A DNA stretch of 64,000 nt from Pacificibacter sp. (GCF_039769035.1 NZ_JBDMZG010000023.1:4429-68428), one strand, 5' to 3'; numbered from the stretch's first letter, positions 12,817-29,962 are shown. Numbers and translations are program-made. Notes: generated from the sequence alone by a model not told the origin.

Positions 12817-12849
12817 GTTGGCACTAAGCGCAAGGATGAACGAAGAGCA

Positions 12850-14214
12850 ATGGAGAATTGGTCGAAAAGAATCGAACAAGCGAGCAAACCGCGGTATTTG
12901 GCGATTGCCGATTGTATTGCGCAGGACATGAAGGATCGTGTGTTGTTACCCGGTGATCGGTTGCCGCCGCAGCGGCGGCTTGCCGACATGATTGGCGTTG
13001 ATTTCACAACCGTTTCACGTGGCTATACCGAAGCGATCAGTCGCGGACTTGTTGAATCACATGTTGGGCGTGGCACCTTTGTGTTGCCCCAGCACAATAT
13101 CAACGGTGCCAGCGATGAACGCCGCGCGATGGCGAATGATCTCACCATGAATGCGCCGCCCGAACCCACGGATCCTGATCTTATCGAACGCATGCGCTTA
13201 GGGCTTTCTGCCGTGTCCGAAGATCTCTTGCATCTGCTGCGCTATCAAGCACCGATGGGCGGCGATGTCGACAAAGAAGCGGCGTCGATCTGGCTGTCTA
13301 TGCGTGGGTTGGTGCCCAATCTGGATCGCGTGTCGGTCACCCCTGGGGCACATGCCACGATGCTCGCGATCCTCACTGTTTTGGCGCGCCCTGGTGATTG
13401 CATTTTGTGCGAAGATATTACCTATGCGGGCTTCAAAAAGATCGCGGCGCAGCTGGGTCTTGAACTGATTGGTTTGCCGATGGATAAGGATGGCATTTTG
13501 CCAGACGCCCTCGAAGAGGCCATTCACCGCCATGGTCCAAAAGCGCTTTATCTTAATCCGACCTTGCACAATCCGACCACTATGATTGTGCCTCAACATC
13601 GCCGCCTTGAGATTGCCAAGGTGATCAACCGCCACAGTCTTCCGCTGATTGAGGACGATGCCTATGGGTTTGTTCTACCTGATGCGCCGCCTCCGATGGC
13701 AACCAGCGCGCCTGAGTTGACGTGGTACATCGGGGGGCTTGCGAAGTGCATTGGCGCGGGGTTGCGTCTTGCCTATACCGTCACTCCCAATGCGAGGGCC
13801 AATTTCGCCCTTGAAAATGGTATTCGTGCCGTATCAGGCATGTCTTCGCCGGTGTGTATGGCGCTTGCGACCCGCTGGGTTCTAGATGGCACGGCGGATC
13901 AAATTCGACGCTATATTCGCAAAGAAAGCGCCATCCGTCAGGAAATCGCCGCGCAGGAAATCACCGAGGCCGAGTTTTGGTCACACCCGCATGCATTTAA
14001 TATCTGGCTGCGGCTCCCCGAGAACGTGAGCTGTGCGACGTTGATGTCCCATATGTCCAACCACGAGATCGGCATTGCCCCTGAAAACGCGTTTCGCACC
14101 GCGGGGATACATGACCAAAACGTGCGCATTTGTCTTGGCGGGCGTATTCAACGCGAAACTCTGCCAAAGCTTCTGTCCCATCTCAATAATCAAATTTGGC
14201 AGCTCAGCCAGTGA
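12850..14214 (+). CDS. MocR/GabR-family regulator (GntR wHTH + PLP aminotransferase-like domain)
   Basis: GDRLPPQRRLA..GVDFTTVSRGY..VGRGTFV; PTLHNPT, IEDDAYG, GGLAKCIGAGLRL; start set at MENWSKR. Confidence 0.9.
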   Translation: MENWSKRIEQASKPRYLAIADCIAQDMKDRVLLPGDRLPPQRRLADMIGVDFTTVSRGYTEAISRGLVESHVGRGTFVLPQHNINGASDERRAMANDLTMNAPPEPTDPDLIERMRLGLSAVSEDLLHLLRYQAPMGGDVDKEAASIWLSMRGLVPNLDRVSVTPGAHATMLAILTVLARPGDCILCEDITYAGFKKIAAQLGLELIGLPMDKDGILPDALEEAIHRHGPKALYLNPTLHNPTTMIVPQHRRLEIAKVINRHSLPLIEDDAYGFVLPDAPPPMATSAPELTWYIGGLAKCIGAGLRLAYTVTPNARANFALENGIRAVSGMSSPVCMALATRWVLDGTADQIRRYIRKESAIRQEIAAQEITEAEFWSHPHAFNIWLRLPENVSCATLMSHMSNHEIGIAPENAFRTAGIHDQNVRICLGGRIQRETLPKLLSHLNNQIWQLSQ

Positions 14215-14772: not shown

Positions 14773-15810
14773 ATGAAAAAGAATACGACACTTGCAATTG
14801 CAGTGGGTCTTGCGGGCGCAGCCTTGGCTCCAACTGCATCATTCGCGCAGAGCGCGACGGTTCAGCAGATTATGGATCGCGGGACTATGTTGTGCTCTGG
14901 CCACAACGGTAGCTACTTCGGTTTTGTCGAAGTGAACGACAAGAACGAATGGAAAGGTCTTGATATCGACCTTTGCCGTGCAATGACCACCGCGATTCTT
15001 GGTGATCCAGACAAGGCGCAAATTGTGCCGCTTAGCTGGGCCCAACGTTTCCCTGCACTTCAGTCCGGCGATGTCGATATCATTATTAAGGCGACAGGTT
15101 GGACAATGGGCCGCGATACAGAGCTTGGTCTTCAGTTCAGCTTGCCTTACTTCTTTGGTGGGACACAGTTCATGGTCCACGGTGATCTGGGTATCTCGGA
15201 CTCGTCCGGCCTCGAAGGCGGTACCGTTTGTGTTGAAGCGGGTACAACGATTGAACGTATTTCCGCAAACTACCTTCAGACCGCTGGCGTTGAGCACACC
15301 ATGGTGTCCTACGAAAGCGCGGCTGAACTTCGTGCGGCATATCTTGCAAATCGCTGTGATGCCTTTGCGGGTTGGGGCCCAAGTCTGGCGGTTCTACGCG
15401 CGACCGAACTCGATAACCCAGACGCACACGTCATTCTGAATGACCAACTCTCGAGCGAGCCAATCGCAGCAGCAATGCGTCAAGGCGATGAAGGTTTCGT
15501 TGATATGGCGAACTGGACAATCGCGGCGCTTTTGATTGCCGAAGAAGAAGGCGTCACCTCTGCGAATGTCGAAGAAATGGCCGCAACACCTCCGAACCCT
15601 AAGGTGGCACGCCTTCTTGGTGTTGAACCGGGAATGGGCGAGCGTCTTGGCATCCGTGATACTTGGGCGCGTGAAATGATCGCAGCAGTTGGTAACTTCG
15701 GTGAAATCTACGATCGAAACCTCGGTTCTGAAAGCCCGTACAATCTTGAGCGTGGCTTGAACAATCTCTGGAGCCACGGCGGCGTTCTTTACGCTCCGAT
15801 CCTTGACTAA
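14773..15810 (+). CDS. Amino-acid ABC transporter substrate-binding protein (AapJ/BztA-like)
   Basis: Signal peptide; GLDIDLCRA, RFPALQSGDVD, SSEPIAAAMRQGD, VGNFGEIYDRNLG and ERGLNNLW..GGVLYAP. Confidence 0.9.
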   Translation: MKKNTTLAIAVGLAGAALAPTASFAQSATVQQIMDRGTMLCSGHNGSYFGFVEVNDKNEWKGLDIDLCRAMTTAILGDPDKAQIVPLSWAQRFPALQSGDVDIIIKATGWTMGRDTELGLQFSLPYFFGGTQFMVHGDLGISDSSGLEGGTVCVEAGTTIERISANYLQTAGVEHTMVSYESAAELRAAYLANRCDAFAGWGPSLAVLRATELDNPDAHVILNDQLSSEPIAAAMRQGDEGFVDMANWTIAALLIAEEEGVTSANVEEMAATPPNPKVARLLGVEPGMGERLGIRDTWAREMIAAVGNFGEIYDRNLGSESPYNLERGLNNLWSHGGVLYAPILD

Positions 15811-15845: not shown

Positions 15846-15867
15846 TCACTTATATTTGGGGGCTAAT

Positions 15868-17004
15868 ATGACGACAACAGAAGTGCTTCGAAAGAAGAGT
15901 AGACAGCGAAAAATTACGATACAAGTATTGCTTGTTATCATCTCAATCATAGCGATTTGGGGGGCAGTGAGCAGTGCCCAAGTCAACCTTGCTGCGCTAG
16001 GAATTACGAACGGTTTTGGGTTTTTAGATCGCAGTACAGGCTGGGACTACAGCTTTTCTCTGGTCGAGCGATCCATCAATGATCCCTATTCAAAGACTTT
16101 GGTGATAGGATTTCAAAATACGATTTTCGTCGGTTTTATTTCCATCTTTTTTGCAACGATTTTTGGCTTCATCATCGGAACTGGACGCGATTCATCCCAT
16201 CCTGGCGTGAAGGCCGCCGCAACAGTTTTTGTACAAACGTTCCGTAATATTCCTTTGATTTTGCAAGGCGTTTTCCTTTACTCAGTTCTCATACATTTCC
16301 CAGGACCGCGCCAATCCATGTCATTCGCTGACAGTGTATTTTTGTCAAATCGTGGGCTTATGTTGCCAGGCTTAAATGTATCGCCTAGCGTCGCGGTCGC
16401 TTTGATTTTGGCCATAGCTAGCGTGGCTGTGCTTTTGGTGTGGAGAAAGGTGCCTTTGCTGCGTGGTTTGATAATTTGGATTGCTGCGGCCATCTCGATG
16501 TCTGTGATTGTTGCGTTTGTGATGCGTCCCGAGGGTGAGCCGTTGTTGTCAATCCCATCATTGAAAGGGCTTCGATTTAATGGGGGCATAACCGTTTCTA
16601 TTGAACTCGTAGCGATGATCACAGCGATCACATTGTACGGAAGTGCGTATATCGCAGAAGTTGTGCGCGGTGGCCTCAAACAAGTGCCCCGTGGTTTGAT
16701 TGAAGCGGGGCAGGCTGTGGGACTAACACAAGGTCAAATTTGGCACCGCATCAAGATGCCCATGTCGCTACGCAGCATCATTCCGCCATTGGGCAATCAG
16801 TGGATTTTCATCATGAAAGCCACCACCATCGGTATCGCTATTGGCTTTAGTGATATGTTCTACATTGTATCGAATTCCATTACGCAATCTGGGCAGACGC
16901 TTGAACTTATCTTCTTGTTGATGGCGGCGTTTCTTACCGTGAATTTTTCAATCTCAATTTTTACGAATTGGTTGAACAATCGACTAAAGCTAAAGGCACA
17001 CTAA
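15868..17004 (+). CDS. Amino-acid ABC permease (AapQ/BztB-like)
   Basis: GFGFL, FRNIPLILQ, AYIAEVVRGG..VPRGLIEAG (EAA loop) and IIPPLGNQ. Confidence 0.9.
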   Translation: MTTTEVLRKKSRQRKITIQVLLVIISIIAIWGAVSSAQVNLAALGITNGFGFLDRSTGWDYSFSLVERSINDPYSKTLVIGFQNTIFVGFISIFFATIFGFIIGTGRDSSHPGVKAAATVFVQTFRNIPLILQGVFLYSVLIHFPGPRQSMSFADSVFLSNRGLMLPGLNVSPSVAVALILAIASVAVLLVWRKVPLLRGLIIWIAAAISMSVIVAFVMRPEGEPLLSIPSLKGLRFNGGITVSIELVAMITAITLYGSAYIAEVVRGGLKQVPRGLIEAGQAVGLTQGQIWHRIKMPMSLRSIIPPLGNQWIFIMKATTIGIAIGFSDMFYIVSNSITQSGQTLELIFLLMAAFLTVNFSISIFTNWLNNRLKLKAH

Positions 17005-17005
17005 G

Positions 17006-18088
17006 ATGGCACATACTCAAAAATTATCTCCCAACCGCTTTCACGCCTATATGGCGTCTTTCTCAAAACGCGCTTTCGGGACCCCATCTGCAGCAGTTTT
17101 GTCCATCGTCATTTTTGGCGCTCTCGGGTATTGGACTTGGCTTGCGGTTGATTGGGCCATTTTTCGAGCGGTGTGGTCCGCCGAAAATGTTGCCCACTGT
17201 ACCGAAGAGGCGGGTGCCTGTTGGTCTGTGATTGATGCGCGCCATCGCCTGATCCTCTTCGGTCTTTATCCCTATGAGGAACATTGGCGATCTACATTTG
17301 CTTGCCTGTCCATTATTGCGACAGTGATCATTTCTTGTTTTCCGGCCACCTGGACGGCGAAGCGACTCACAAGCCTTTGGGTGGCAGGATTTGCTGCATA
17401 TTATCTCCTGATGGAAGGGAGCTTGCTGGGCCTTGCGCAGGTTACAACGGATGGGTGGGGCGGGCTTTCCCTCACGTTATTTCTGTTTGCGTCTGTTGTT
17501 CTATTGGGCATGCCTATGGGGCTTGGCTTGGCGTTGATGCGCCGCTCTGAGATGCCTGTTGTGCGTAGCTTTGCGGTGATCGTGATCGATACAATTCGTT
17601 CATTGCCTCTTTTGACTACACTGTTTACCGCGGCTGTCGTCGTTCCAATCCTTTTGCCAAGCTGGCTTGAAGGTGACAAGATTTGGCGCGTTATCATCGC
17701 GTTTTCTTTGTTCTTTGGCTGTTATCAGGCCGAAGTTTTCAGAGGCGGTTTTCAGGCCATTCCGAAAGGGCAATTCGAAGCCGGCAAGGCCCTTGGTATA
17801 GGGTATTGGAAGATCATGGCGCGCATCATTTTGCCGCAAGTGTTCCGCCATGCTTTGCCAAGTACCATCAATATGGTTGTTGTGACGTTTAAAGAGACAG
17901 CCATCGTGATCATCATCGGCTTCTTTGATGTATTGGCATCGGCCAAGGCTGCTTTCGGGACAGGCGAGTGGGCGCCGCATTACATGGAGGTCTATGTCTT
18001 TGTCGGTGCGATATATTGGACATTCATCTTTTCGCTCGGCCAGTATGGCGAGTATTTGAAAGGAAGAATGGCCTTATCGACGCACTAG
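17006..18088 (+). CDS. Amino-acid ABC permease (AapM/BztC-like)
   Basis: GACW, YPYEEHWR, WGGLSLTL, AEVFRGGFQAIPKGQFEA and FKETA. Confidence 0.9.
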   Translation: MAHTQKLSPNRFHAYMASFSKRAFGTPSAAVLSIVIFGALGYWTWLAVDWAIFRAVWSAENVAHCTEEAGACWSVIDARHRLILFGLYPYEEHWRSTFACLSIIATVIISCFPATWTAKRLTSLWVAGFAAYYLLMEGSLLGLAQVTTDGWGGLSLTLFLFASVVLLGMPMGLGLALMRRSEMPVVRSFAVIVIDTIRSLPLLTTLFTAAVVVPILLPSWLEGDKIWRVIIAFSLFFGCYQAEVFRGGFQAIPKGQFEAGKALGIGYWKIMARIILPQVFRHALPSTINMVVVTFKETAIVIIIGFFDVLASAKAAFGTGEWAPHYMEVYVFVGAIYWTFIFSLGQYGEYLKGRMALSTH

Positions 18089-18106
18089 CGACCTAGGAGG
18101 TGCAAA

Positions 18107-18146
18107 GAAAAGGGGCGAAGAGGTAAAACCCGCTTCGCCCCTTTTC
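18107..18146. terminator. Bidirectional rho-independent terminator
   Basis: GAAAAGGGGCGAAG-N12-CTTCGCCCCTTTTC between convergent operons. Confidence 0.8.
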
Positions 18147-18167
18147 TATTGGATCAAGTGTTGGGTA

Positions 18168-18383
18168 TTACGAATTCAAATATCCAGCAATGAGTGCAAC
18201 AAAGGCCCCGATGTGCACGACCATCAGCGCTCGGTCCCTCCACATAAATCCAACGACAAACCACAGCACGATACCGATGACAAAGGCCGCAATATTCCAC
18301 GGCACGATATTCATCCCCGTCAAGGCATATCCAATAAGTTGCACGACCGTCGCAATCCATTTGATCACATCTACGCGTTCCAT
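18168..18383 (-). CDS. Small membrane protein (DUF6552-like)
   Basis: 71 aa, hydrophobic: IKWIATVVQLIGYALT..PWNI..LWFVVGFMWRDRALMVVH. Confidence 0.65.
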   Translation of the reverse strand: MERVDVIKWIATVVQLIGYALTGMNIVPWNIAAFVIGIVLWFVVGFMWRDRALMVVHIGAFVALIAGYLNS

Positions 18384-18413
18384 ATCTTTACTCTTTCGTT
18401 ATTTCGTTAAGGA

Positions 18414-19298
18414 TCACAACGCATCAATTGGCACAGTAAGCGTCATGTTACCGTCTTTATCTTTGGGAACTTCGCCGGCGCGCATATTGACTTGGAGCGA
18501 CGGAATAATCAATTTTGGCATGCCAAGGGTCGCGTCGCGGGCTTCGCGCATGGAGACGAACTCTTCACGAGACGCCCCTTCACCAACATGGATATTCGCT
18601 TTCTTTTGTGCGCCGATGGTCGTCTCCCAACGGATTGCGCGCCCATTGGGGCCGTAGTCGTGACATACAAACAGTCGCATTTCTTCAGGGAGAGCAAGAA
18701 CGCGTTCGATTGAATCGAACAACTCACCGGCATCGCCTCCAGGAAAATCCGCCCGCGCGGACCCGCCATCTGGCATGAATAATGTATCACCCGTAAAGAC
18801 CGCATCCCCTATGACATGCACCATACAGGCCGGCGTATGTCCGGGCGTATGCATGGCAAAACAAGTCATTTTGCCGACATTATAAACCTGATTGTCCGTG
18901 AACAGACAGTCGAACTGTGTGCCGTCCCGTTGGAATTCGGTGCCAGCATTAAAGATCTTTCCAAAGGTTTCTTGCACAGTCAGGATATGTTCACCGATCC
19001 CGATTTTACCGCCCAGTTTTTTCTGTATATAGGGCGCGCCAGATAGGTGATCTGCGTGAACATGTGTTTCAATAATCCATTCAAGTCTAAGCCCGCGTTC
19101 GGTTATGAATGCGATGATCTGATTCGCGGTATCAAAGCTGAGGCGTGCAGCCGCGTAATCAAATTGCATGACAGCATCAATGACCGCGCAAGACGTGCTT
19201 GCGGGGTCTTTGATGACATAGCTTATTGTGTTGGACTGCGCATCGAAGAATGCCGTTACGTCTGGCTTTTGATCCAGAGATGCAATTGGATGTTCCAT
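18414..19298 (-). CDS. MBL-fold persulfide (sulfur) dioxygenase, ETHE1/Blh type
   Basis: ETHVHADHLS, TPGHTPAC, GDTLFMPDGGSARADFPGG, CHDY and PKLIIPSLQVNMRAG. Confidence 0.85.
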   Translation of the reverse strand: MEHPIASLDQKPDVTAFFDAQSNTISYVIKDPASTSCAVIDAVMQFDYAAARLSFDTANQIIAFITERGLRLEWIIETHVHADHLSGAPYIQKKLGGKIGIGEHILTVQETFGKIFNAGTEFQRDGTQFDCLFTDNQVYNVGKMTCFAMHTPGHTPACMVHVIGDAVFTGDTLFMPDGGSARADFPGGDAGELFDSIERVLALPEEMRLFVCHDYGPNGRAIRWETTIGAQKKANIHVGEGASREEFVSMREARDATLGMPKLIIPSLQVNMRAGEVPKDKDGNMTLTVPIDAL

Positions 19299-19313
19299 GC
19301 CCGTCTTCCTTTT

Positions 19314-19952
19314 CTAATCGAGAGTTACAGCGCCTTTTGGTGTACTTAGATCAAAGGACAACGCGGCGGGGCCCTCGCTGACATTGGCCAAGTGATCGAC
19401 CTTGAGTGCTTTCAAAACTTCCAACAGTTCAGACGGGTTTGGGTGGGCCAAATGAACCTTGTCCAAGGTCACGCCCAAATCTTGTTGGCCTGTGCTTGGA
19501 TGGGGCCCTGGCGACCATTCGATGAACGCAGGCAACAAACCTCCCATCGGCAAGCTTCCGTCTTTTGGTACAGTCAAACGCCATGAGCGATCACCGCGCG
19601 TGAACAGTACCACTTCGCCCAGATCCACGGGGCTCGCGGCGATGACCGCATCCAGATCGTCGGTCCCAACGACCCAGCACAATGCACGAGGACGGGTTTT
19701 TAGGCGGGCTTGGGTGGCACGGTCATCCAGCGTGAACCAACGTACCCGCCCTGGATCGGCTGGTGCGTCGGGATCGATCGCGATAAGTTCAAAGAAGCTC
19801 TCGTTGCCTGATTGCATCACACAATTATGCGTGCTCATCGCGTCGTGTTTGCCGCCGCGTGGAACTTCGACGCCAAGGACGTCCTTCAGGCTTTCGATAC
19901 CTTGCTCCAAGCTGTCGGCGCCAATCGCAAAGTGGTCAATTTTGTTGTGCAT
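19314..19952 (-). CDS. VOC/glyoxalase-like domain protein
   Basis: IDHFAIGA..GGKHDAMSTHN..FELIAIDP..PAFIEW. Confidence 0.8.
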   Translation of the reverse strand: MHNKIDHFAIGADSLEQGIESLKDVLGVEVPRGGKHDAMSTHNCVMQSGNESFFELIAIDPDAPADPGRVRWFTLDDRATQARLKTRPRALCWVVGTDDLDAVIAASPVDLGEVVLFTRGDRSWRLTVPKDGSLPMGGLLPAFIEWSPGPHPSTGQQDLGVTLDKVHLAHPNPSELLEVLKALKVDHLANVSEGPAALSFDLSTPKGAVTLD

Positions 19953-19977
19953 TTGGGCACTCCGTTTTGATGGTAAA

Positions 19978-21153
19978 CTATGAATTCAAAAGAGGTAACG
20001 CGGCCTGCAGGTCTGCTTTCAGGCTATCTGTGTCTTCAAGGCCGATGTTAAACCGCACCAAGGCACCGGTCTCAGTCCAAGCTTTCGCGCTGCGCATGGG
20101 GTCAACGGGCAATACAAGGCTCTCGTATCCACCCCAGCTCACGCCGATACCAAAATGATGCAGGGCGTCGACAAAATCGCGGATTTGTGCCGCGCTGCAG
20201 GGGTGAAAAATCACGGAGAACAGACCTGCGGCGCCGGTGAAGTCACGCTTCCAGAAATCGTGGCCGGGGCAACTCTCAAAGGCTGGGTGCAGAACAGTCT
20301 TTACTTGTTTTTGTTGTCCCAGCCATGTCGCGATTTCACGGCCGGCCTTGTCAAAATACTCCATGCGGACCTTAAGCGTTCTAAGCCCGCGCAAGGCGAG
20401 GAAAACTTCGTGTGATCCTGGCTTGTCGCCGATTGCAAAAACGGTCTTACGTATCTGATCATGGTACATGGTATTGCTCGCGATCATGCCCATCATGCAA
20501 TCTGAATGCCCGCTGATGTATTTTGAGCAAGAGGCGACCACGACATCGCAGCCCAGATCAAGGGGTTTGCAAAACAACGGCGTGGCCCAAGTGCTATCGA
20601 TAATCGAGGGGATAGAGGCATCGCGTGCGGCTTTTGCAATGGCCGGAATGTCAGGTATTTCAAAGGTGCCCGACCCTGGGGCTTCGAGCATAATGGCGCA
20701 GGTTGTTTCACGAATTAAATCGTAGATATCTGTGCCGATCATGGGATCGTAGTATTCAATCTCAACGCCCATGCGGCTCAAAACGCCATCACAAAAGGCG
20801 CGCGTGTTGCCGTAGACGTGATCGGCGACCAATAGGTGTTTTCCCGGGGCAACGAATGTCATCAACGCCGTAGAGATGGCCGCCACGCCGGATGATGTTA
20901 AGGTGACACCGCGTGCGTTTTCGAGATTGGCAAGTAGCGCTTCCAGTTGAAATGAGGCGTCATTTCCATACCGCCCATAGTAAAGGGTACCGGATGCGTA
21001 GCGCGCATCGCGTGCGCTCTCAAAACTTGCCATACTGTCAAAGACAATCGTCGAGCCAAGCTCAATAGGCATGTTAACATGACGACCATCGACACGGGGA
21101 GGCCTACCGTTTTGCACGAGAGCATCGGCGTTATTTCTTGTATCTGAAGGCAT
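19978..21153 (-). CDS. PLP-dependent C-S lyase, cystathionine beta-lyase (MetC)-like
   Basis: GSTIVF, YGRYG, DSTWATP, SKYISGHSD (PLP lysine), RGLRTL and GVSWGGYESL. Confidence 0.85.
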   Translation of the reverse strand: MPSDTRNNADALVQNGRPPRVDGRHVNMPIELGSTIVFDSMASFESARDARYASGTLYYGRYGNDASFQLEALLANLENARGVTLTSSGVAAISTALMTFVAPGKHLLVADHVYGNTRAFCDGVLSRMGVEIEYYDPMIGTDIYDLIRETTCAIMLEAPGSGTFEIPDIPAIAKAARDASIPSIIDSTWATPLFCKPLDLGCDVVVASCSKYISGHSDCMMGMIASNTMYHDQIRKTVFAIGDKPGSHEVFLALRGLRTLKVRMEYFDKAGREIATWLGQQKQVKTVLHPAFESCPGHDFWKRDFTGAAGLFSVIFHPCSAAQIRDFVDALHHFGIGVSWGGYESLVLPVDPMRSAKAWTETGALVRFNIGLEDTDSLKADLQAALPLLNS

Positions 21154-21203
21154 GGAATAATCTCGCTTAATATAGACGTTCTGAGGATGACATCCCAGAT
21201 CTA

Positions 21204-21241
21204 CTGTGTCAATATGCAGAAAATATGTTCACTATAGCAGC
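21204..21241 (-). promoter_or_regulatory. Promoter/operator block of the C-S lyase operon (TTGACA -35)
   Basis: Minus strand GCTGCTATAGTGAACATATTTTCTGCATATTGACACAG; 28/38 identical to 24856-24893. Confidence 0.6.
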
Positions 21242-21254
21242 ACGTGAGAGTTGA

Positions 21255-23591
21255 ATGCCTAAGATTGAAACAAAGATTACTGCAAACCACTGGGGCGTTG
21301 GTGTCGCTGTGGTTGAAGATGAAAAAATTCAATCGGTCGCTGGGCATTGCGAGGATCCAAATCCGTCGCGGATCAACGATAATATCGCAAGCAGCTTGCA
21401 TGGCGATGCGCGTATCACGCGTCCAGCCGTGCGCAAATCATGGCTTGAGAACGGTCCCGAAGGGCGCGGTACAAGCGGCGAAACAGCACGCGGTCGCGAT
21501 GGCTTTGTCGAAGTCAGTTGGGATACGGCTCTCGATTTGATTGCCAAAGAACTTAGACGTATTCGTGAGGCGTATGGGAATGGAGCAATTTTTGCCGGTT
21601 CATATGGTTGGTCAAGCGCCGGACGCTTTCATCACGCCCAGAGTCAACTGAAGCGTTTTTTGAACACGCAGGGCGGGTTCGTGCGTTCAGAGGGTAACTA
21701 TAGCTATAATGCGGCCCTTGTCCTGATGCCGCATATCGTTGGGCCGTACCGACAACATGTTGTGGACGCGACCCGCTGGCCGGTCATTGCCAAACACAGC
21801 GATCTTGTTGTGTGTTTTGGTGGCATCGCACAGCGCAATACTCAAGTCAGCGATGGTGGCGTTGCGCGTCATCGGATGAAAGATAACTTGACCCTATGCA
21901 AGGACGCGGGCGTTGAGTTTGTCAACATCAGCCCATTACGCAGCGATATCTTAGAGACACTTGATGCTGTCTGGATGCCACCATTGCCGGGTTCTGACAC
22001 TGCATTGATGTTGGGGCTCGCGCATACCTTGCTAACCGAAGGTCTGCATGATGTTTCGTTTTTGGATAAATACACCGTCGGCTTTGACCGCGTCGCAGCG
22101 TACATTCTGGGCAAAACCGATGGCCAGCCAAAAGACGCCGCTTGGGCTGCGGCACAATCGGGAATCGACGCCGAAGACATTGCGGCCCTCGCTCGAAAAA
22201 TGGCGTCGTCCCGTACGATGATCAGTATTGCCGCGGGGGTACAGAGGGCAGATTATGGCGAACAACCCCTTTGGATGGGAGTGACTTTGGCAGCGATGCT
22301 GGGGCAAATCGGCTTACCTGGTGGCGGATATGTGATTGGGTACGGCGTGAACGCGAACATCGGGAATGTAGAGCGCCCATTTCGGTGGGGCGCCTTTTCA
22401 CAACTCAAGAACCCGCACGATGACTTTATCCCAGTCGCGATGATTTCCGAGATGTTACTAAGTCCCGGGAAAAGCTATGATTACAACGGGCGTAAACGGA
22501 AATTCCCCCATGCGCGTATGGTCTGGTGGGCCGGAGGAAACCCTTTTCATCATCACCAAGACCTGAATAGGTTACACGAGGCGTTCCAGGCCCCCGACAC
22601 CGTGATTGTGAATGAGCTGAATTGGACCGCAACCGCGCGTCATGCGGATATCGTTTTGCCGATTGCGTCTGCGCAAGAACGTACAGACTTTGGCGCAGGG
22701 AAATCAGACAATGCCCTTGTTCCGATGCCTGCATTAATCAAGCCGGTGGGCGAGGCGCGGATGGAATATGACATCTATGCAGACCTCGCAGGGCGTCTTG
22801 GAAATGCCGAGGCGTTTACGGAGGGGCGCAGCAGTGAAGACTGGTTGCGGTGCATTTGGCAACAAACGCAATCTACGGCTTCGAAGGCCGGTATTGATCT
22901 GCCGAACTGGGATGAATTTATCTCTGGGGACGTTGTGCATGTGCCAGATCCAGCGCCTGAGCAAGTATTTCTGGACAAATTTCGTGCCGATCCGGTGGCA
23001 AATCCCTTGTCGACCCCAAGCGGCCGCATCCAGCTATTCTCGCAAACCATTGCGTCGTTTGGTCGCCCTGACTGCCCAGGCCATGCGGCGTGGTTCGCGC
23101 CACGGGATGTGGCAGCCGGAGCGGAACAAAAATACCCACTGTATATGTTGTCGGGGCAACCAAAAACGCGGTTGCACAGCCAGCTTGATAATGGCGACTA
23201 TAGTAAAAGCCATAAGATCAAGGATCGCGAGCCGGTGCTGCTTCATCCAAGAGATGCGGCTGAGCGTGGGATTGAGCATGGAGATATCGTTGAGCTCTAC
23301 AATGATCGCGGGCGTTGTCTTGCTGGTGCAAAAATAACCGATGAAGTCCGCGAGGGCTGTGTCTTTTTGTGGACGGGAGCTTGGTATGATCCCGATTTCA
23401 ATGCGCCGCAAAACCGTGATCGACATGGAAATCCGAATGTTTTAACCCATGATCTTCGCACATCGTCCCTTAGTCAAAGCACGGCGGCACATTCAACCTT
23501 GTTGAATGTACGTAAGTTTGAAGGTGTATTGCCAAAAATCACGGCTCATTCAGCTCCTGACTTCCTGTTTCGGAATGAACCTGATACTTGA
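21255..23591 (+). CDS. Cytoplasmic bis-MGD molybdoenzyme, BisC/DMSO-reductase clade (S-oxide reductase-like)
   Basis: NHWG start with no Tat peptide or FeS cysteines; GSYGWSSAG, NYSYNAA (Ser ligand), WAGGNPFHHHQD, RLHSQL and GNPNVLT. Confidence 0.88.
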   Translation: MPKIETKITANHWGVGVAVVEDEKIQSVAGHCEDPNPSRINDNIASSLHGDARITRPAVRKSWLENGPEGRGTSGETARGRDGFVEVSWDTALDLIAKELRRIREAYGNGAIFAGSYGWSSAGRFHHAQSQLKRFLNTQGGFVRSEGNYSYNAALVLMPHIVGPYRQHVVDATRWPVIAKHSDLVVCFGGIAQRNTQVSDGGVARHRMKDNLTLCKDAGVEFVNISPLRSDILETLDAVWMPPLPGSDTALMLGLAHTLLTEGLHDVSFLDKYTVGFDRVAAYILGKTDGQPKDAAWAAAQSGIDAEDIAALARKMASSRTMISIAAGVQRADYGEQPLWMGVTLAAMLGQIGLPGGGYVIGYGVNANIGNVERPFRWGAFSQLKNPHDDFIPVAMISEMLLSPGKSYDYNGRKRKFPHARMVWWAGGNPFHHHQDLNRLHEAFQAPDTVIVNELNWTATARHADIVLPIASAQERTDFGAGKSDNALVPMPALIKPVGEARMEYDIYADLAGRLGNAEAFTEGRSSEDWLRCIWQQTQSTASKAGIDLPNWDEFISGDVVHVPDPAPEQVFLDKFRADPVANPLSTPSGRIQLFSQTIASFGRPDCPGHAAWFAPRDVAAGAEQKYPLYMLSGQPKTRLHSQLDNGDYSKSHKIKDREPVLLHPRDAAERGIEHGDIVELYNDRGRCLAGAKITDEVREGCVFLWTGAWYDPDFNAPQNRDRHGNPNVLTHDLRTSSLSQSTAAHSTLLNVRKFEGVLPKITAHSAPDFLFRNEPDT

Positions 23592-23612
23592 TACGTATCG
23601 GAGGATGAACCA

Positions 23613-24383
23613 ATGACAGATACGCCGCCTAAGACGCCCAAAGTTGACTCTACCCTCTCCAAGGGATTGAGCATTCTTGAAAACTTGGCACATGCCCCAT
23701 CAGGCAAGGGCGTTACCGAGTTATCGGTGGAGTTGGGTCTTACGAAATCTAACACATTTCGCCTTTTGCAGAGTCTCACAACACTTGGATATGTCAAACA
23801 CTTGGAAAGCAAAGCTTATGCCGCGACGTTGAAGACGTGGCAAATTGGACGAGCTTCGGTTGATAATTTGAACCTGCGCGAACTGGCCGCGCCTGAGATG
23901 TCATTCCTGTCCAAGGAAACCGGCGAGACGATTTATCTGGCCGTTCCTGAACATCTTGGGATCGTCTATATAGATAAGATTGAGAGCCAAAAACCCATCC
24001 GGTCTTGGAGCCCGATTGGCGGCGAAGCGCCGATTCATTGCGTGGGTACCGGGAAGGCCATCTTGGCGGCGAATTATGGTAGCATGCGCGAACGCATTAA
24101 GGGGCAACTGACCCGACATACGGAAAAGACAATATCCTCTATTGCGGCCCTTGATGATGATATAAATGCGACGCTTGCCCGAGGATATGCCGTAGACCAA
24201 GGCGAATTTCGCGAGCGCATTTGGAGTCTTGGGGCAGCGATTACGCTTCCCAGTGGAGAAAGCATAGCGTCGTTGGGGATTTCGTTGCCAGATGTGAGTA
24301 TGCCCGAAAACGGGTTAGATAGATATGGATCTTTGGTTGCCAATTGCGCCGAAAGCGTATCTGCGAAACTGGCGCGCCGCTAA
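23613..24383 (+). CDS. IclR-family regulator
   Basis: TLSKGLSILE..GVTELS..LTKSNTFRLL; PIHCVGTGKAILA; RGYAVDQGE. Confidence 0.92.
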   Translation: MTDTPPKTPKVDSTLSKGLSILENLAHAPSGKGVTELSVELGLTKSNTFRLLQSLTTLGYVKHLESKAYAATLKTWQIGRASVDNLNLRELAAPEMSFLSKETGETIYLAVPEHLGIVYIDKIESQKPIRSWSPIGGEAPIHCVGTGKAILAANYGSMRERIKGQLTRHTEKTISSIAALDDDINATLARGYAVDQGEFRERIWSLGAAITLPSGESIASLGISLPDVSMPENGLDRYGSLVANCAESVSAKLARR

Positions 24384-24441
24384 ATTTCACTTGATCTAAC
24401 TGTTTCGCGCCTTCTTTGTAGAGTGCGCGAAACAGAGTTTT

Positions 24442-24843
24442 TTAGCCCTTCTTTTCAGGAAATTCGACTGAACCGCCTTGTTTTTCCCAAGTGGAGAAAC
24501 CTTCTTTGAGGTGAGCCGCTTCAAACCCCATGTCTTGGAGCGTGGCAACTGTTAGCGACGAGCGCCAACCTGAGGCGCAATGGAAGACAAACTTTTTATC
24601 TTCTCCAAAGATGTCCTTGAAATATGGGCTGTCTGGATCGACCCAGAATTCGATCATGCCACGCGGCGCGTGAAAGCTGCCAGGAATAAAACCTGTGCGC
24701 TGGCGTTCACGTGGGTCGCGAATGTCAACCACGACAACATTTGGATTTTCGAGCATCGCGATGAGGTCGGCGGTTTCGACTTCCTCAATGCGCGCTCTTG
24801 CGGCTTTCACCATGTCAGATGATGACAATTTGAGCTTTTTCAT
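24442..24843 (-). CDS. Single-domain rhodanese (sulfurtransferase)
   Basis: VVDIRDPRE, HAPRGMIEFWVDP and active-site FHCASGWRS. Confidence 0.88.
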   Translation of the reverse strand: MKKLKLSSSDMVKAARARIEEVETADLIAMLENPNVVVVDIRDPRERQRTGFIPGSFHAPRGMIEFWVDPDSPYFKDIFGEDKKFVFHCASGWRSSLTVATLQDMGFEAAHLKEGFSTWEKQGGSVEFPEKKG

Positions 24844-24855
24844 AAAGACCTCTGT

Positions 24856-24893
24856 GCTGATATATAGAACTTATATATCATATATTGACACAG
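24856..24893 (+). promoter_or_regulatory. Promoter/operator block of the FAD-oxidase operon
   Basis: TGATATATA-GAACT-TATATATCA palindrome (24858-24880) abutting TTGACA (24885-24890). Confidence 0.65.
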
Positions 24894-24954
24894 AGGAGAA
24901 GCTGTTGCAACCTTTCCTCAATCGCAGCCATTCCGTTTGAGGTAGGGAATCTAT

Positions 24955-26229
24955 ATGAGTGCACAAAATGCAATTTCGCTTTGGAACGCCACGGCGATTG
25001 AAGAAGATTTTCATGCGCCGCTCGATACGCAAGGTATCTTGGATGTCGTGATTATCGGCGGTGGGTTCACCGGGTTATCATCAGCGCTTCATTGCGCCGA
25101 GCAGGGACTGTCGGCGCATGTGCTTGAGGCGAATCAAATCGGTTTCGGTGGGTCAGGACGCAACTGTGGGCTGGTAAATGCCGCGCTTTGGTTGCCACCC
25201 CAAAAAGTGCGTGAGAAATTGGGACCGGTATATGGTCCGCGTTTCATCGATATGTTCGGTCAAGGCCCAGGGTATGTGTTTTCTCTAATTGAAAAGCACC
25301 AAATCCGCTGTGAAGTGACCAAAACTGGGACAATTCATGGTGCGCATGCCCCTTCAGGTTTTCGCGACCTACAGGACCGCCACAAAGAGTGGCAGCGCCT
25401 GGGTCAGCCAGTGGATCTGCTATCGCGTGAGGAGGTATCCGAGAAATTGGGCACGACTGTGTTCCATGGTGGCCTTTTGGATCACCGCGCCGGCACGATA
25501 AACCCAATGGGCTATGTGCGAGGACTTGCACGTGCGGCGCTCGGAGCCGGTGCGAAAATAAGCACCAAGGTCCGCGCGACCAAATTATCCAAAGAAGGTG
25601 ATCTGTGGATCGTTGAAACGGATAAGGGCACAGTGAAAGCTAAGGCGGTTGTTCTGGGAACCAACGCTTACACGGATGACCTATGGCCAGGCTTGAAGCA
25701 GAACTTTACGTTGATCAATTACTTTCAACTCGCCACCAAGCCGCTGGGGCCAGAGGCCGCGCATATTATGCCCGAAAAACAGGGTTTGTGGGATACCGGT
25801 CAGATCATGTTTAATGTGCGCCGCGATGCATACGATCGCCTGCTGATTGGATCTATGGGTAAGGTCATGGGTGATATTAATGGCGGCGTTTCACAGCGTT
25901 GGGCGCGCAAACAAATCGCGCGTTTGTTCCCAACACTTGGCCCCGTCGAGTTCGAAGAGGCGTGGACAGGGCAAATTGCAATGACACCAGATCATCTGCC
26001 CCGCATTCATGAGCTTGATAAAAATCTATTCACGCCAATTGGTTACAATGGTCGTGGTATCACAACCGGTACGATGTTTGGGCGCACGATGTCGCAATTA
26101 TTGACCGGCATGGATCGTGCAGATCTGCCGCTACCTATGACGGACCCATCGACAGTGAAATCTGCTCCTGTCTTTTCGCGCTTGTACCAAACGGCGTTCA
26201 CAGCAAAACAAATCTTGAAAGCAATTTGA
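24955..26229 (+). CDS. FAD-dependent oxidoreductase, DAO/PuuB-like
   Basis: IIGGGFTGLSSAL, GFGGSGRNCGLV, INPMGYVRGLA and GYNGRGITTG. Confidence 0.88.
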   Translation: MSAQNAISLWNATAIEEDFHAPLDTQGILDVVIIGGGFTGLSSALHCAEQGLSAHVLEANQIGFGGSGRNCGLVNAALWLPPQKVREKLGPVYGPRFIDMFGQGPGYVFSLIEKHQIRCEVTKTGTIHGAHAPSGFRDLQDRHKEWQRLGQPVDLLSREEVSEKLGTTVFHGGLLDHRAGTINPMGYVRGLARAALGAGAKISTKVRATKLSKEGDLWIVETDKGTVKAKAVVLGTNAYTDDLWPGLKQNFTLINYFQLATKPLGPEAAHIMPEKQGLWDTGQIMFNVRRDAYDRLLIGSMGKVMGDINGGVSQRWARKQIARLFPTLGPVEFEEAWTGQIAMTPDHLPRIHELDKNLFTPIGYNGRGITTGTMFGRTMSQLLTGMDRADLPLPMTDPSTVKSAPVFSRLYQTAFTAKQILKAI

Positions 26230-26231
26230 CT

Positions 26232-28319
26232 ATGACACTGGCTTCTACACGCGTCGGCGTGGATATCGGCGGCACCTTTACGGATGTTGCATTGCAACAT
26301 GCGGGCGGGCTTTCGACGTGCAAAGTTCTGACCAACTACACTCAACCTGAACAGGCGATTTTGGATGGAATTGCCTTGGCTTCCAAACAGGCTGGGATCG
26401 AATTGTCTGATATTGATCAAGTGATCCACGGCACCACTTTGGTGACGAACTCTTTGATTGAGCGTCGCGGAGCAAAGCTGGCGTTTATCACGACCGAAGG
26501 TTTTCGCGACGTCATCGAAATGCGTTCTGAAAATCGGTTTGAGCAGTATGACCTGAACCTTAACCTGCCAAAGCCGATGGTGCCTCGTCAGGATCGTTTC
26601 ACATTGAATGAACGGATCGGCGCAAGTGGCGCGGTCCTGTTGCCGCTTGAGCAAGACGACGTGGACGCAATGGTACAAACCATTCTGGCCGGCGACTTTG
26701 AAGCCGTCGCGATTGGGTTGATGCACTCCTATGCCAATGATGCGCACGAACGTCAGATGGCGGATGCATTGCGTGCGGCGGCCCCTGATTTGTCGATTTC
26801 GATCTCATCTGTGATTTCGCCACAAATGCGCGAACTGCCACGGTTTAATACAGTGATCGCAAACGCATATGTACAACCACAGGTCGCGGATTATCTTGGA
26901 CGTTTGGTCGCCCGCCTTCGTGGCGCCGGCGTCGCGGCCCCAGTCTTTATGTTACATTCTGGGGGTGGTTTGATTTCGGTAGAAACAGCCGCAGAACAGC
27001 CTGTCCGTCTGCTTGAATCTGGTCCCGCAGGGGGCGCAATTTTTGCCGCCGATTTTGCGCGGGCGCATGATCTCGACAAAGTCTTGAGCTTTGATATGGG
27101 GGGCACCACTGCCAAGATTTGCTTGATCGAAGATGGTGCGCCCAAGACGGCGAATACCTTCGAAGTCGCGCGTACATATCGTTTCAAAAAAGGCTCGGGC
27201 ATGACCGTGTCCACACCCGTTGTTGAAATGGTCGAGATCGGCGCGGGAGGCGGTTCAATTGCGTCCATCGACAGCATGAACCGAATCCAAGTTGGACCTC
27301 GATCCGCGGCCTCAGAGCCAGGCCCGGCGTGCTATGGCCGAGGCGGAGAAGAGCCAACTGTGACGGATGCGAACCTGCTTTTGGGTCGCCTTGATCCAAA
27401 CAATTTCGCGGGAGGTGCGATCCAACTGCACCCTGACGCATCGGACACTGCCGTGGCTGCGAAACTTGGCGAAACTTTGAGTATTACAAGCAGCGACGCC
27501 GCCTTTGGTGTTACCGAAATGGTTGACGAAAACATGGCCAATGCGGCGCGTGTTCACACGGTTGAAAATGGCCGTGATATTGAACATTTTACCATGATCG
27601 GTTTCGGAGGTGGGGCACCGCTTCATGCCTGTCGTCTCTGTGAAAAACTCGGCATACGTGATTTGATCATTCCGCCAGGTGCGGGTGTTGGTTCTGCGAT
27701 TGGCTTCCTGAAGGCCCCCTTCAGTTATGAAGCTACGCGCGGATTGTTTCAGCAACTCGCTGATTTCAATGGCGCTGCAGTGAACTCAGCTTTGGCTGAG
27801 CTGGAGCAAGAGGCCCGCGCTTTTGTTGAAGCAGGGGCCAAGGACGCGGATACCTCATCTAAACTGACTGCGTTTATGCGATATGCGGGGCAGGGTTGGG
27901 AAATCCCAGTGTCCCTACCGTACAAACCGTTTGCGGACTCGGATAAATCAGAGATCCAAGATGCGTTTGAAGCCGCATATGAAATGTTGTTTGGCCGGAC
28001 CATCGATGGGCTTGCGATTGAAATCACCAACTGGTCGCTTGTGGTTGCATCCGTGCTGCCTGATGTTGCAAAGGCCGCGCATTTCGCATCGGGAGATGCA
28101 GCAACAGAGCGACGGACACGTCAATTCTATGACGCTGCACTGCGAAGCACCGTGGATGCGCGCGAAGTAGAGCGTAGCGAAATGAGCGCTGGGAAATCTG
28201 TCGAAGGCCCCGCCGTGATTATCGAAAATGAGACCACCACAATTGTCACATCCGCCTATACGGCGATTGGCCAAGGCGACGGCAGCTTGCTGCTGCGCCG
28301 CAAGGGAGACGCACTATGA
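26232..28319 (+). CDS. Hydantoinase A / 5-oxoprolinase ATP-binding subunit
   Basis: GVDIGGTFTD, HGTTLVTN, ESGPAGG, DMGGTTAK, IGAGGGSI and GPACYGRGG. Confidence 0.92.
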   Translation: MTLASTRVGVDIGGTFTDVALQHAGGLSTCKVLTNYTQPEQAILDGIALASKQAGIELSDIDQVIHGTTLVTNSLIERRGAKLAFITTEGFRDVIEMRSENRFEQYDLNLNLPKPMVPRQDRFTLNERIGASGAVLLPLEQDDVDAMVQTILAGDFEAVAIGLMHSYANDAHERQMADALRAAAPDLSISISSVISPQMRELPRFNTVIANAYVQPQVADYLGRLVARLRGAGVAAPVFMLHSGGGLISVETAAEQPVRLLESGPAGGAIFAADFARAHDLDKVLSFDMGGTTAKICLIEDGAPKTANTFEVARTYRFKKGSGMTVSTPVVEMVEIGAGGGSIASIDSMNRIQVGPRSAASEPGPACYGRGGEEPTVTDANLLLGRLDPNNFAGGAIQLHPDASDTAVAAKLGETLSITSSDAAFGVTEMVDENMANAARVHTVENGRDIEHFTMIGFGGGAPLHACRLCEKLGIRDLIIPPGAGVGSAIGFLKAPFSYEATRGLFQQLADFNGAAVNSALAELEQEARAFVEAGAKDADTSSKLTAFMRYAGQGWEIPVSLPYKPFADSDKSEIQDAFEAAYEMLFGRTIDGLAIEITNWSLVVASVLPDVAKAAHFASGDAATERRTRQFYDAALRSTVDAREVERSEMSAGKSVEGPAVIIENETTTIVTSAYTAIGQGDGSLLLRRKGDAL

Positions 28320-29962
28320 GCCCGACAGCAATCGATTATCAAATCATGTGGAACCGCTTGATTGCGGTTGTCGAAGAACAAGCCACGACATTGATCCGAA
28401 CCGCTTTTTCAACCTCAGTGCGCGAAGCGGGCGATTTGTCGGCAGGGCTTTTTGATCGCCAAGGCCGAATGATGGCGCAGGCGGTCACCGGCACGCCAGG
28501 TCACGTGAACGCAATGGCCGAGAGCGTGACGCATTTTGTACGTGAGCTGGGACTGGATAACGTATTTGAAAACGACGTTTTCATCACCAACGACCCATGG
28601 CTTGGCACGGGGCACCTTCACGACATTACGGTTGTGTCGCCAACGTTTCGCAACGGCCAACACATCGGTTTCTTTGCCTGTACTGCGCATGTTGTGGATA
28701 TTGGTGGTCGGGGTTTTGGGCCTGACGCGAACGAAGTGTATGAAGAGGGTCTCTTGATCCCGATCATGAAGTTCGCCGAACGGGGAAACGTGTCCAAGGA
28801 TCTTATCCGTATGGTGCGCTCTAACGTGCGTGAACCGGATCAAGTGGTCGGCGATCTTTATTCTCTAGCGGCCTGTAACGAGGCAGGGGATCGCCGCTTA
28901 CAGACCATGATGGGCGAATTTGGCATCTCTGATCTGGAGGGTCTGTCGGATTTCGTGATTGAGACATCGCGCAAAGCCACCCATGAGGCCATCGCCAAAG
29001 TTCCCGATGGCACGTTTCGTCATTCTATGCAGGTGGATGGGTATGATGCACCGGTCAATATGGTTGTGCGTTTGGATGTCGCTGGGGATAAAATCAAAGC
29101 CGATTTTGATGGTACCTCAGGCATGAGCCGCTTTGGCGTAAACGTTCCCGAGGTCTACACACGTGCCTATGCGTGCTATGGCTTGAAATGCGCGATTGCG
29201 GCAGAGGTGCCGAATAACACGGGTTCACTTGAACCCTTTGAAATTACCGCTCCTGAGGGATGCATCTTGGCCGCGCGTCGACCTGCTCCGGTTTCGGTGC
29301 GCCATGTCTTGGGACATTTGGTGCCTGATGTGGTGCTGGGCGCTTTGCACCAAGCGATGCCCGACACAGTTCCCGCCGAGGGGGCAAGCGCACTTTGGAA
29401 TATCCAAATTTCGGCACGCGCCAGTGATCCCGCAAGCGGTTTGCCGAATGCCGAGGTCCTGATGTTCAACTCTGGCGGGACAGGGGCCCGCCCAACATTG
29501 GACGGATTGTCTGCGACGGCCTTCCCATCTGGTGTGTCGACGATGAGCGTCGAAGCGACCGAGCACGTTGGCCCGATCACAGTGTGGCGAAAAGATCTTC
29601 GTGAGGGATCAGGCGGGGCGGGGGCCTTTCGGGGCGGCCTTGGTCAGAACATCGAAATCGAACCCCGCGAAGGCTATGACTTTTACTTTAACGCCATGTT
29701 CGATCGGGTGGAAAATCCCGCGCGCGGTCGCGAAGGTGGCCATGCGGGTGCCAAGGGACAGGTCGAACTTTCAGATGGCACCAAGATGAGAAGCAAGGGG
29801 CGCCAGTTGGTCAAAAATGGCCAACGTCTCAAACTCAGCCTCCCAGGAGGGGGCGGATATGGCGCGCCAAGCGCGCGCGACAAAACGGAAGTGGCCCAAG
29901 ATCTGGCCGCTGGATTCATCACAGAAGAGCAAGCGACCGGCGTTTACGGTCTGAAAAAGTAG
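28316..29962 (+). CDS. Hydantoinase B / 5-oxoprolinase catalytic subunit
   Basis: RTAFSTSVREAGDLS, NDPWLGTGHLHD, HVVDIGG, EEGL, SGGAGAFRGG and PGGGGYG; ATGA-coupled to subunit A. Confidence 0.92.
   Translation: MSPTAIDYQIMWNRLIAVVEEQATTLIRTAFSTSVREAGDLSAGLFDRQGRMMAQAVTGTPGHVNAMAESVTHFVRELGLDNVFENDVFITNDPWLGTGHLHDITVVSPTFRNGQHIGFFACTAHVVDIGGRGFGPDANEVYEEGLLIPIMKFAERGNVSKDLIRMVRSNVREPDQVVGDLYSLAACNEAGDRRLQTMMGEFGISDLEGLSDFVIETSRKATHEAIAKVPDGTFRHSMQVDGYDAPVNMVVRLDVAGDKIKADFDGTSGMSRFGVNVPEVYTRAYACYGLKCAIAAEVPNNTGSLEPFEITAPEGCILAARRPAPVSVRHVLGHLVPDVVLGALHQAMPDTVPAEGASALWNIQISARASDPASGLPNAEVLMFNSGGTGARPTLDGLSATAFPSGVSTMSVEATEHVGPITVWRKDLREGSGGAGAFRGGLGQNIEIEPREGYDFYFNAMFDRVENPARGREGGHAGAKGQVELSDGTKMRSKGRQLVKNGQRLKLSLPGGGGYGAPSARDKTEVAQDLAAGFITEEQATGVYGLKK

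Follow-up and report, generated by a model that had tools for sequence, protein, structure and literature searches.

Why does a molybdenum (Mo) enzyme of the S-oxide reductase type, apparently cytoplasmic, lie head to head with a carbon-sulfur (C-S) lyase in a marine bacterium? The question is raised by a stretch of 64,000 nucleotides from Pacificibacter sp. (GCF_039769035.1 NZ_JBDMZG010000023.1:4429-68428; the whole stretch is called the window below), in which the lyase open reading frame (ORF) P0002 (19978-21153, minus strand, 391 amino acids) and the Mo-enzyme ORF P0001 (21255-23591, plus strand, 778 amino acids) diverge from start codons located 101 bp apart, on either side of the gap 21154-21254. 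Neither ORF can be extended upstream, since each begins at the first start codon past a stop. These limits and this spacing are exactly those given by an earlier, sequence-only reading of the window, which had presented the two genes as a unit. The pairing was borne out by our analysis, but the scope was too narrow, since the pair is part of a regulon of about 19 kb. The explanation that we favour, and to which we give slightly better than even chances, is that the pair lies at the divergent centre of a regulon under IclR control, devoted to the catabolism of an imported organosulfur amino acid bearing a sulfoxide.

The window originates from a marine member of the Rhodobacteraceae, and its Mo-enzyme gene is 100% identical in two Halocynthiibacter-like records. 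A megablast search of E. coli genomes with the lyase/Mo-enzyme pair gave no match. We then collected comparison loci by a pattern scan with P0001 peptide patterns, using one genome per species, which yielded 75 loci that were searched by tblastn with the window proteins; 47 of these hold a member of the Mo-enzyme clade with full 10-kb flanks. The pairing of the lyase and the Mo enzyme was found far more often than expected by chance. The two genes are head to head, with a gap of less than 600 bp, in 35 of the comparison loci, and the lyase gene lies within 10 kb of the Mo-enzyme gene in 34 of the 47 full-flank loci, a linkage less tight than that of the IclR regulator or of the flavoenzyme (39/47 each).

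A common operator and the regulon around the pair

An imperfect dyad of 38 bp is found in each divergent promoter region of the window (operators A and B), and the exact sequence GTGTCAAYAT is found in the 64-kb window at these two sites only. Among the orthologous intergenic regions, TGTCAAYAT is present in 34 of the 35 located between the lyase and Mo-enzyme genes and in 37 of the 37 located between the rhodanese and flavoenzyme genes, and its frequency elsewhere in the loci is 0.02 per kb. In rearranged clusters, the starts of the genes for the lyase, the binding protein, the Mo enzyme or the flavoenzyme account for most of the leftover sites. The Mo-enzyme gene is co-transcribed with the IclR gene and has its operator in common with the catabolic operons; the IclR protein is the likely binder of the 38-bp sites. 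Scans of positions 18000 to 25200 for consensus promoters and terminators gave sites no more frequent than in shuffled sequence.

Most of the gene families are kept in 33 to 39 of the 47 loci, and the CoA ligase, RidA and the persulfide dioxygenase are kept in fewer. The cluster was seen in roseobacters, Hoeflea, Roseibium, Stappiaceae and Afipia, and with a rearranged gene order in Psychromonas, Vibrio and Marinomonas. The most conserved component is the binding protein of the ATP-binding cassette (ABC) importer: its identity is 83-90% for the majority of the alphaproteobacterial clusters, falling to 54% among a few outliers, and 76-79% for the versions of Psychromonas, Vibrio and Marinomonas, whereas the enzymes of the cluster are only 52-75% identical. 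Conservation of the binding protein so far above that of the enzymes suggests a strong constraint or joint horizontal transfer. The features of the regulon are listed below, with the number of full-flank loci in which each is kept.

14773-15810, plus strand: periplasmic substrate-binding protein of an Aap/Bzt-type polar amino-acid ABC importer (PF00497, TIGR01096; 35/47 loci)
15856-17004, plus strand: ABC permease 1 (TIGR01726 and GlnP-like matches; 35/47 loci)
17006-18088, plus strand: ABC permease 2 (GltK-like and TIGR01726 matches; 35/47 loci)
18414-19298, minus strand: metallo-beta-lactamase-fold, persulfide-dioxygenase-like protein, resembling the C-terminal part of Blh (NF040641, 355 bits, profile positions 139-423; PF00753; 19/47 loci)
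19314-19952, minus strand: vicinal oxygen chelate (VOC)-fold protein, Glyoxalase_3 (PF13468, E 1.5e-33; 33/47 loci)
19978-21153, minus strand: P0002, MetC-like C-S beta-lyase dependent on pyridoxal 5'-phosphate (PLP) (PF01053; TIGR01324, 412 bits; E. coli MetC structure, 279 bits)
21206-21243: operator A, imperfect 38-bp dyad, GTGTCAATAT-N18-ATAGCAGCAC, ending 12 bp ahead of the Mo-enzyme start codon
21255-23591, plus strand: P0001, predicted cytoplasmic Dor/Tor-type S-oxide reductase with bis(molybdopterin guanine dinucleotide) (bis-MGD) (PF18364, PF00384, PF01568; TIGR00509, 919 bits)
23613-24383, plus strand: IclR-family regulator, 21 bp past the Mo-enzyme gene (PF09339, PF01614; 39/47 loci)
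24442-24843, minus strand: single-domain rhodanese (PF00581; 32/47 loci), missing from the gammaproteobacterial versions
24854-24891: operator B, imperfect 38-bp dyad, GTGCTGATAT-N18-ATATTGACAC, between the rhodanese and flavoenzyme genes
24955-26229, plus strand: flavin adenine dinucleotide (FAD) amine oxidase whose nearest named family is the L-pipecolate oxidase AmaA (NF050086, 447 bits, cut-off 600; 39/47 loci)
26226-28319, plus strand: hydantoinase/oxoprolinase A-type subunit, alpha subunit of an ATP-dependent lactam hydrolase (NF050156, caprolactamase alpha, 455 bits, cut-off 1000; 35/47 loci)
28316-29962, plus strand: hydantoinase/oxoprolinase B-type subunit, beta subunit of the same (NF050157, 198 bits, cut-off 1000; 33/47 loci)
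29971-30723, plus strand: short-chain dehydrogenase (SDR) (36/47 loci)
30729-32648, plus strand: acyl-CoA ligase resembling PrpE/Acs (NF007815, 727 bits, cut-off 955; 25/47 loci)
32641-32985, plus strand: RidA-family protein (TIGR00004, E 1.5e-14; 24/47 loci)
33001-33738, plus strand: ABC ATPase completing the importer (GlnQ/TcyN-like; 32/47 loci)
33780-35516, plus strand: SulP-family anion transporter of uncertain membership in the regulon (TIGR00815, 437 bits), located outside the 10-kb flanks of the comparison loci

The persulfide-dioxygenase-like gene is the last of the lyase operon and is an accessory member. The plus-strand operon that diverges from the rhodanese gene consists of the flavoenzyme, HydA, HydB, SDR, CoA ligase, RidA and ABC ATPase genes. 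The VOC protein gave an AlphaFold2 model with a pLDDT of 91.7, whose best solved folds are a hypothetical protein of S. aureus (3p8a), methylmalonyl-CoA epimerases and HPPD, a result that supports the superfamily only; a sequence search with this protein against solved structures gave no match.

Some other ORFs lie at the edges of these genes. An ORF of 71 amino acids coding for a hydrophobic, membrane-type product (18168-18383, minus strand) is found 30 bp past the persulfide-dioxygenase-like gene. Only one other locus, L071, has it, in another position, and it probably does not belong to the conserved genes. A small DsrE-like protein (12102-12584, minus strand) and a MocR-type GntR/aminotransferase regulator (12730-14214, plus strand) are encoded between a Nit1C-type cluster and the importer, and these two genes are not kept beside the regulon in the other genomes. 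Just past the SulP gene, a recombinase-like ORF (35570-36535, minus strand) with a weak XisF-type match may mark the border of an island.

The molybdoenzyme P0001

P0001 matched PF18364 (Molybdopterin_N), PF00384 (Molybdopterin) and PF01568 (Molydop_binding), all above their cut-offs. The protein starts with MPKIETKITANHWG, and PF18364 covers residues 9-49. The alignment places residues 4-7 opposite residue 33 of MtsZ and residue 50 of the DorA precursor. This leaves no space for a twin-arginine leader, and the absence of a twin-arginine translocation signal claimed by the sequence-only reading stands, the N-terminal Mo domain beginning immediately. The two motifs singled out in that reading, GSYGW and NYS, also align as expected: Tyr117-Gly-Trp119 corresponds to Tyr114/Trp116 of DorA and Ser150 to the Mo ligand Ser147, and these residues are invariant in the clade. 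The tyrosine had been said to be replaced in TorA-type enzymes; E. coli TorA reads "AS-GW" at this place, with no tyrosine, in agreement with PMC5122715.

The score of P0001 against TIGR00509 (bisC_fam) is 919.3 bits, under the cut-off of 1017.55, so that within the wider Dor/Tor family it counts as divergent. Its best solved relatives are MtsZ (7l5i, 634 bits) and DorA (622 bits). P0001 is about 40% identical to each of E. coli BisC, TorZ and TorA; by comparison, the identity between BisC and TorZ is 64%. From these likenesses P0001 is predicted to reduce S-oxides by means of bis-MGD.

A phylogeny of the dimethyl sulfoxide (DMSO) reductase family, proposed as a check by the sequence-only reading, placed P0001 in a fully supported clade of its own. 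This clade is found inside a larger, well-supported cytoplasmic group that has the block SAGRFHHAQSQLKRF in common, and is apart from both the BisC/TorZ and the TorA/DorA-like enzymes. Its signature is Asn148 (Asp in the reference enzymes), Tyr151 (Thr), Asn152 (Gly), Leu155 (Gln) and His168 (Tyr). The genome of the window has P0001 as its only BisC-family gene. Other cytoplasmic paralogues of the Rhodobacteraceae, with which P0001 groups, are 45-51% identical to it and have other Ser-ligand loops, and three genomes carry both types. On sequence grounds, the clade of P0001 is a distinct and new one among the predicted cytoplasmic sulfoxide reductases.

Comparison of P0001 with the group 2 enzymes (E. 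coli BisC and TorZ, H. influenzae MtsZ) showed that the fold, the domain order, the Tyr-x-Trp pair and the Ser ligand are the same, while the loop reads GNYSYNAAL in P0001 and GDYSTGAAQ in group 2, and P0001 lies outside the BisC/TorZ clade. In MtsZ numbering, Asp185 and Tyr205, which are highly conserved partners of the Ser ligand (PMC8166771), are replaced by Asn148 and His168 in P0001, and Arg166 and His182 of MtsZ, which bind the side chain of methionine sulfoxide, are replaced by Gln129 and Ser145. A third Dor/Tor group has been defined around the BisC of R. sphaeroides (RsBisC, AAA74739.1) (PMC8166771). RsBisC and P0001 are both soluble, cytoplasmic, single-subunit bis-MGD enzymes of Rhodobacteraceae without a twin-arginine leader. 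Unlike RsBisC, P0001 is found in a catabolic-regulon setting, and its clade has its own loop and coexists with the other cytoplasmic paralogues. P0001 is probably near the RsBisC group, the tree having been made without RsBisC.

The respiratory enzymes TorA and DorA have a twin-arginine leader, an adjacent TorC/DorC cytochrome and a TorD-type chaperone. P0001 has none of these, and no cytochrome or TorD-type partner is encoded near it; its gene is flanked by those for a PLP lyase and an IclR regulator. Together with the co-transcription of the IclR gene and the operator in common with catabolic operons, this leaves the catabolic, non-respiratory role assigned to the Mo enzyme in the sequence-only reading well supported. 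The further proposal of that reading, in which the Mo enzyme would prepare a thioether for beta-elimination, is compatible with the gene context.

The same comparison bears on the idea that P0001 is an N-oxide reductase, or acts on a substrate without sulfur, and that its location reflects a mixed island rather than one pathway. Dor/Tor enzymes commonly reduce S- and N-oxides alike (PMC8166771, Table 1), and the active-site loop of the clade is unlike that of every characterised member. However, the tyrosine marking the S-oxide reductases, which TorA does not have, is invariant in the clade, the neighbours are sulfur-themed, the association is repeated in a paralogous module (see below), and the common operator argues for one regulon. 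We consider an N-oxide or non-sulfur substrate very unlikely.

The lyase P0002 and the recurrence of the association

P0002 reached 412 bits against TIGR01324 (cystathionine beta-lyase, CBL; cut-off 365.9), and its assignment as a C-S lyase in the sequence-only reading is thus upheld by this score and by PF01053. It belongs to the same family as E. coli MetC (PDB 1cl1, 279 bits) and retains the PLP lysine as well as the catalytic and alpha-carboxylate residues; residues Y56, R58, Y111, D185, K210, S339, W340 and R372 are invariant in its clade. The differences from MetC are on the distal side of the pocket. R59 of MetC is replaced by Tyr in every member of the P0002 clade, D116 mostly by a small residue (Ala, Gly, Ser, Thr) and never kept as Asp, W131 by Tyr or Pro, Y238 by Met, Phe, Leu or Ile, and Y338 mostly by Val or Leu. 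Work by Lodha et al. from 2010 is said to have given R59 and D116 of MetC roles in the pocket for the distal homocysteine moiety. Judged from the alignment, P0002 is without the distal cystathionine pocket of MetC.

P0002 is the only CBL-type gene in its genome. An unbiased sample of the family was made with 200 genera of Rhodobacteraceae (201 genomes, counting that of the window), and a search for CBL at E 1e-60 gave no match in 181 of these 201 genomes, so transsulfuration is not the usual methionine route of the family. In this sample, close orthologues of P0002 were found only beside the Mo enzyme, and all three of the others are head to head with it. Judged by this distribution, P0002 is not a housekeeping MetC in the Rhodobacteraceae. 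The other Cys/Met PLP matches in the genome comprise one complete gene, on contig C80, and two fragments that lie at the ends of contigs (C40 and C45; L008 and L009), the fragments probably being one sulfhydrylase gene split by the assembly. These matches fit direct sulfhydrylation, not transsulfuration, toward methionine.

Another role for both enzymes was weighed against these results, in which P0001 would be a BisC-type scavenger of free methionine or biotin sulfoxide, P0002 would be the cell's own MetC, making homocysteine, and both would feed methionine. P0002 is above the CBL cut-off and is the sole gene of its kind in the genome, P0001 is likewise the genome's sole BisC-family gene, the characterised relatives E. 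coli BisC, MtsZ, TorZ and RsBisC all reduce methionine sulfoxide (PMC8166771), and members of the Mo-enzyme clade that stand alone do occur. This role is nevertheless quite unlikely, given the 181 genomes of the family without a CBL match, the replacement of the distal cystathionine pocket in P0002, the Gln and Ser found in P0001 in place of Arg166 and His182 of MtsZ, and an operator in common with the flavoenzyme/lactamase operon and the importer.

The association of a BisC-like and a CBL-like gene is repeated in other Rhodobacteraceae. Genome G029 has a tight cluster of 7.5 kb (L101:8816-16315) with the same kinds of gene: a VOC protein, a BisC-like enzyme (44% identical), a LysR regulator, an oxidase of the D-amino acid oxidase (DAO) family (ThiO/SoxB-like), a rhodanese and a CBL-like enzyme (46% identical). 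The rhodanese of this module is 3-mercaptopyruvate-sulfurtransferase-like and directly precedes the CBL-like gene. In G068 (L104:1508-18874) and G117 (L102/L103), where fewer parts were identified, the BisC-like and CBL-like genes are 14-17 kb apart with HydAB between them, and in G068 a rhodanese and a DAO-family oxidase are also located between the two. The BisC-like genes of the modules are 41-46% identical to P0001, with the loop ETNYSYGAAM in two of the three, and the CBL-like genes are about 46% identical to P0002. A BisC-family gene and a CBL occur together in 12 of the sample genomes, and in 7 of these the two are within 20 kb of each other. The same association in two diverged lineages argues for a functional link and not for inherited synteny, and the paralogous module may handle another cysteine-derived sulfoxide.

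The rhodanese placed directly before the CBL-like gene of G029 also suits a different explanation, centred on cystine or sulfane sulfur. The lyase would then release persulfide or sulfide, which the persulfide dioxygenase and the rhodanese would oxidise to sulfite or thiosulfate, and the Mo enzyme would repair oxidised products, for example methionine sulfoxide or the S-oxides of cystine (thiosulfinates). MetC-type enzymes cleave cystine and cysteine, and in the window a persulfide-dioxygenase-like gene ends the lyase operon and a rhodanese gene is nearby. However, the persulfide dioxygenase is kept in 19 and the rhodanese in 32 of the 47 loci, no copy of either was found in those gammaproteobacterial versions in which the core is retained, and the pipecolate-oxidase-like enzyme, the lactamase, the SDR and the CoA ligase under the same operator are left unexplained. 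We hold this explanation to be unlikely. Like the methionine role and the N-oxide substrate, it is less well supported than a catabolic regulon for an imported sulfoxide-bearing amino acid.

A candidate pathway and its meaning

Under the favoured catabolic explanation, the order of steps would be as follows. The compound would be imported by the Aap/Bzt-type ABC importer, and the cytoplasmic Mo enzyme would strip the sulfoxide oxygen to give a thioether, with electrons from a cytoplasmic reductant and not from the respiratory chain. The flavoenzyme, the SDR and the ATP-dependent lactamase would then oxidise and open a nitrogen-containing ring, or remove a substituent from the nitrogen, to give a free S-substituted L-cysteine. 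Beta-elimination by the MetC-like PLP lyase would yield pyruvate, ammonia (with the help of RidA) and a thiol fragment. This fragment would be processed by the VOC protein and the CoA ligase, and the persulfide dioxygenase and the rhodanese, where present, would handle the reduced sulfur released.

The middle steps are suggested by the nearest named families of the operon, which are AmaA, 5-oxoprolinase and the caprolactamase CapAB, and which point to oxidation of a cyclic secondary amine followed by opening of a lactam. The flavoenzyme scored 447.4 bits against NF050086 and 112 against the next family, so AmaA is its only strong named relative, yet it is not a member of that family; no relative was found among solved structures at E 1e-10. 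Unlike AmaA and CapAB, the proteins of this operon score well under the cut-offs (447/600, 455/1000 and 198/1000) and their genes are tied to sulfur enzymes. The likeness to pipecolate oxidase, the lactamase, the sulfoxide reductase and the beta-lyase together fit chondrine (1,4-thiazane-3-carboxylate S-oxide, from red and brown algae), the S-oxide of the sulfur analogue of pipecolate. Chondrine, or a close cyclic relative, is the best-fitting single candidate for the substrate, one that we propose only tentatively as that specific compound; its route, drawn from chemical reasoning, could lead from a ring imine to a lactam and then to S-carboxymethylcysteine.

Other substrates were considered and set aside. 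Biotin catabolism does not fit an amino-acid importer or the need of the lyase for an alpha-amino acid, dimethylsulfoxonium propionate or DMSO would leave the flavoenzyme, the lactamase and the lyase unexplained, and no gamma-glutamyl enzyme is present for gamma-glutamyl sulfoxide peptides.

Several results weigh against the pathway as drawn. The 75 loci are biased to close relatives and include many kin. In the unbiased sample, members of the P0001 clade (at least 62% identity) are found in 12 genomes, that of the window included, and the lyase in only 4 of these 12; among the genomes that are without the lyase, three still have the flavoenzyme, which in two is next to the Mo-enzyme gene, and two have the Mo-enzyme gene alone. 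Clusters that are otherwise complete also occur without the lyase (L016, L019, L037 and G179). Members of the Mo-enzyme clade that stand alone (G073, G161 and Oceanospirillum) have nearly the same Ser-ligand loop among unrelated neighbours, in which no common theme was found (LysR regulators, an efflux pump, YcaO, a glycosyltransferase), so a generic substrate such as free methionine sulfoxide would fit them too. A simple thiol product does not account for the roles of the VOC protein, the CoA ligase, the persulfide dioxygenase and the rhodanese. A sulfoxide is a good leaving group for PLP lyases, and its reduction is thus not strictly needed for cleavage; the reduction may keep reactive sulfenic acids from being released or make the flavoenzyme and ring-opening steps possible. 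Literature searches on the catabolism of chondrine or thiomorpholine-carboxylate, on BisC with CBL and persulfide dioxygenase, and on roseobacter reports of these genes found nothing relevant.

The conserved regulon is built from known enzyme families and is apparently undescribed. Cytoplasmic molybdoenzymes of the BisC type are usually viewed as serving repair or scavenging, for biotin or methionine sulfoxide, whereas here one clade of them belongs to a dedicated, regulated catabolic set. A defined operator, a likely IclR regulator, a lyase with a remodelled pocket and a short list of candidate substrates give handles for experiments, and cultured strains in which they could be used include Epibacterium ulvae U95, Primorskyibacter sedentarius DSM 104836, Tateyamaria omphalii and Dinoroseobacter.

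The gene set is found in many marine bacteria that come from, or are associated with, algae and invertebrates, and it points to an unrecognised pool of organosulfur substrates and to a new physiological role for BisC-type enzymes. In its boldest form, which we regard as doubtful but possible, the regulon would encode an undescribed pathway for the S-oxides of cyclic thioether imino acids from seaweed (chondrine and its relatives), with the new Mo-enzyme clade performing the committed first step and the paralogous modules handling other cysteine-derived sulfoxides. If this were true, cytoplasmic BisC-like enzymes would be a general entry for oxidised organosulfur compounds into the marine sulfur cycle.

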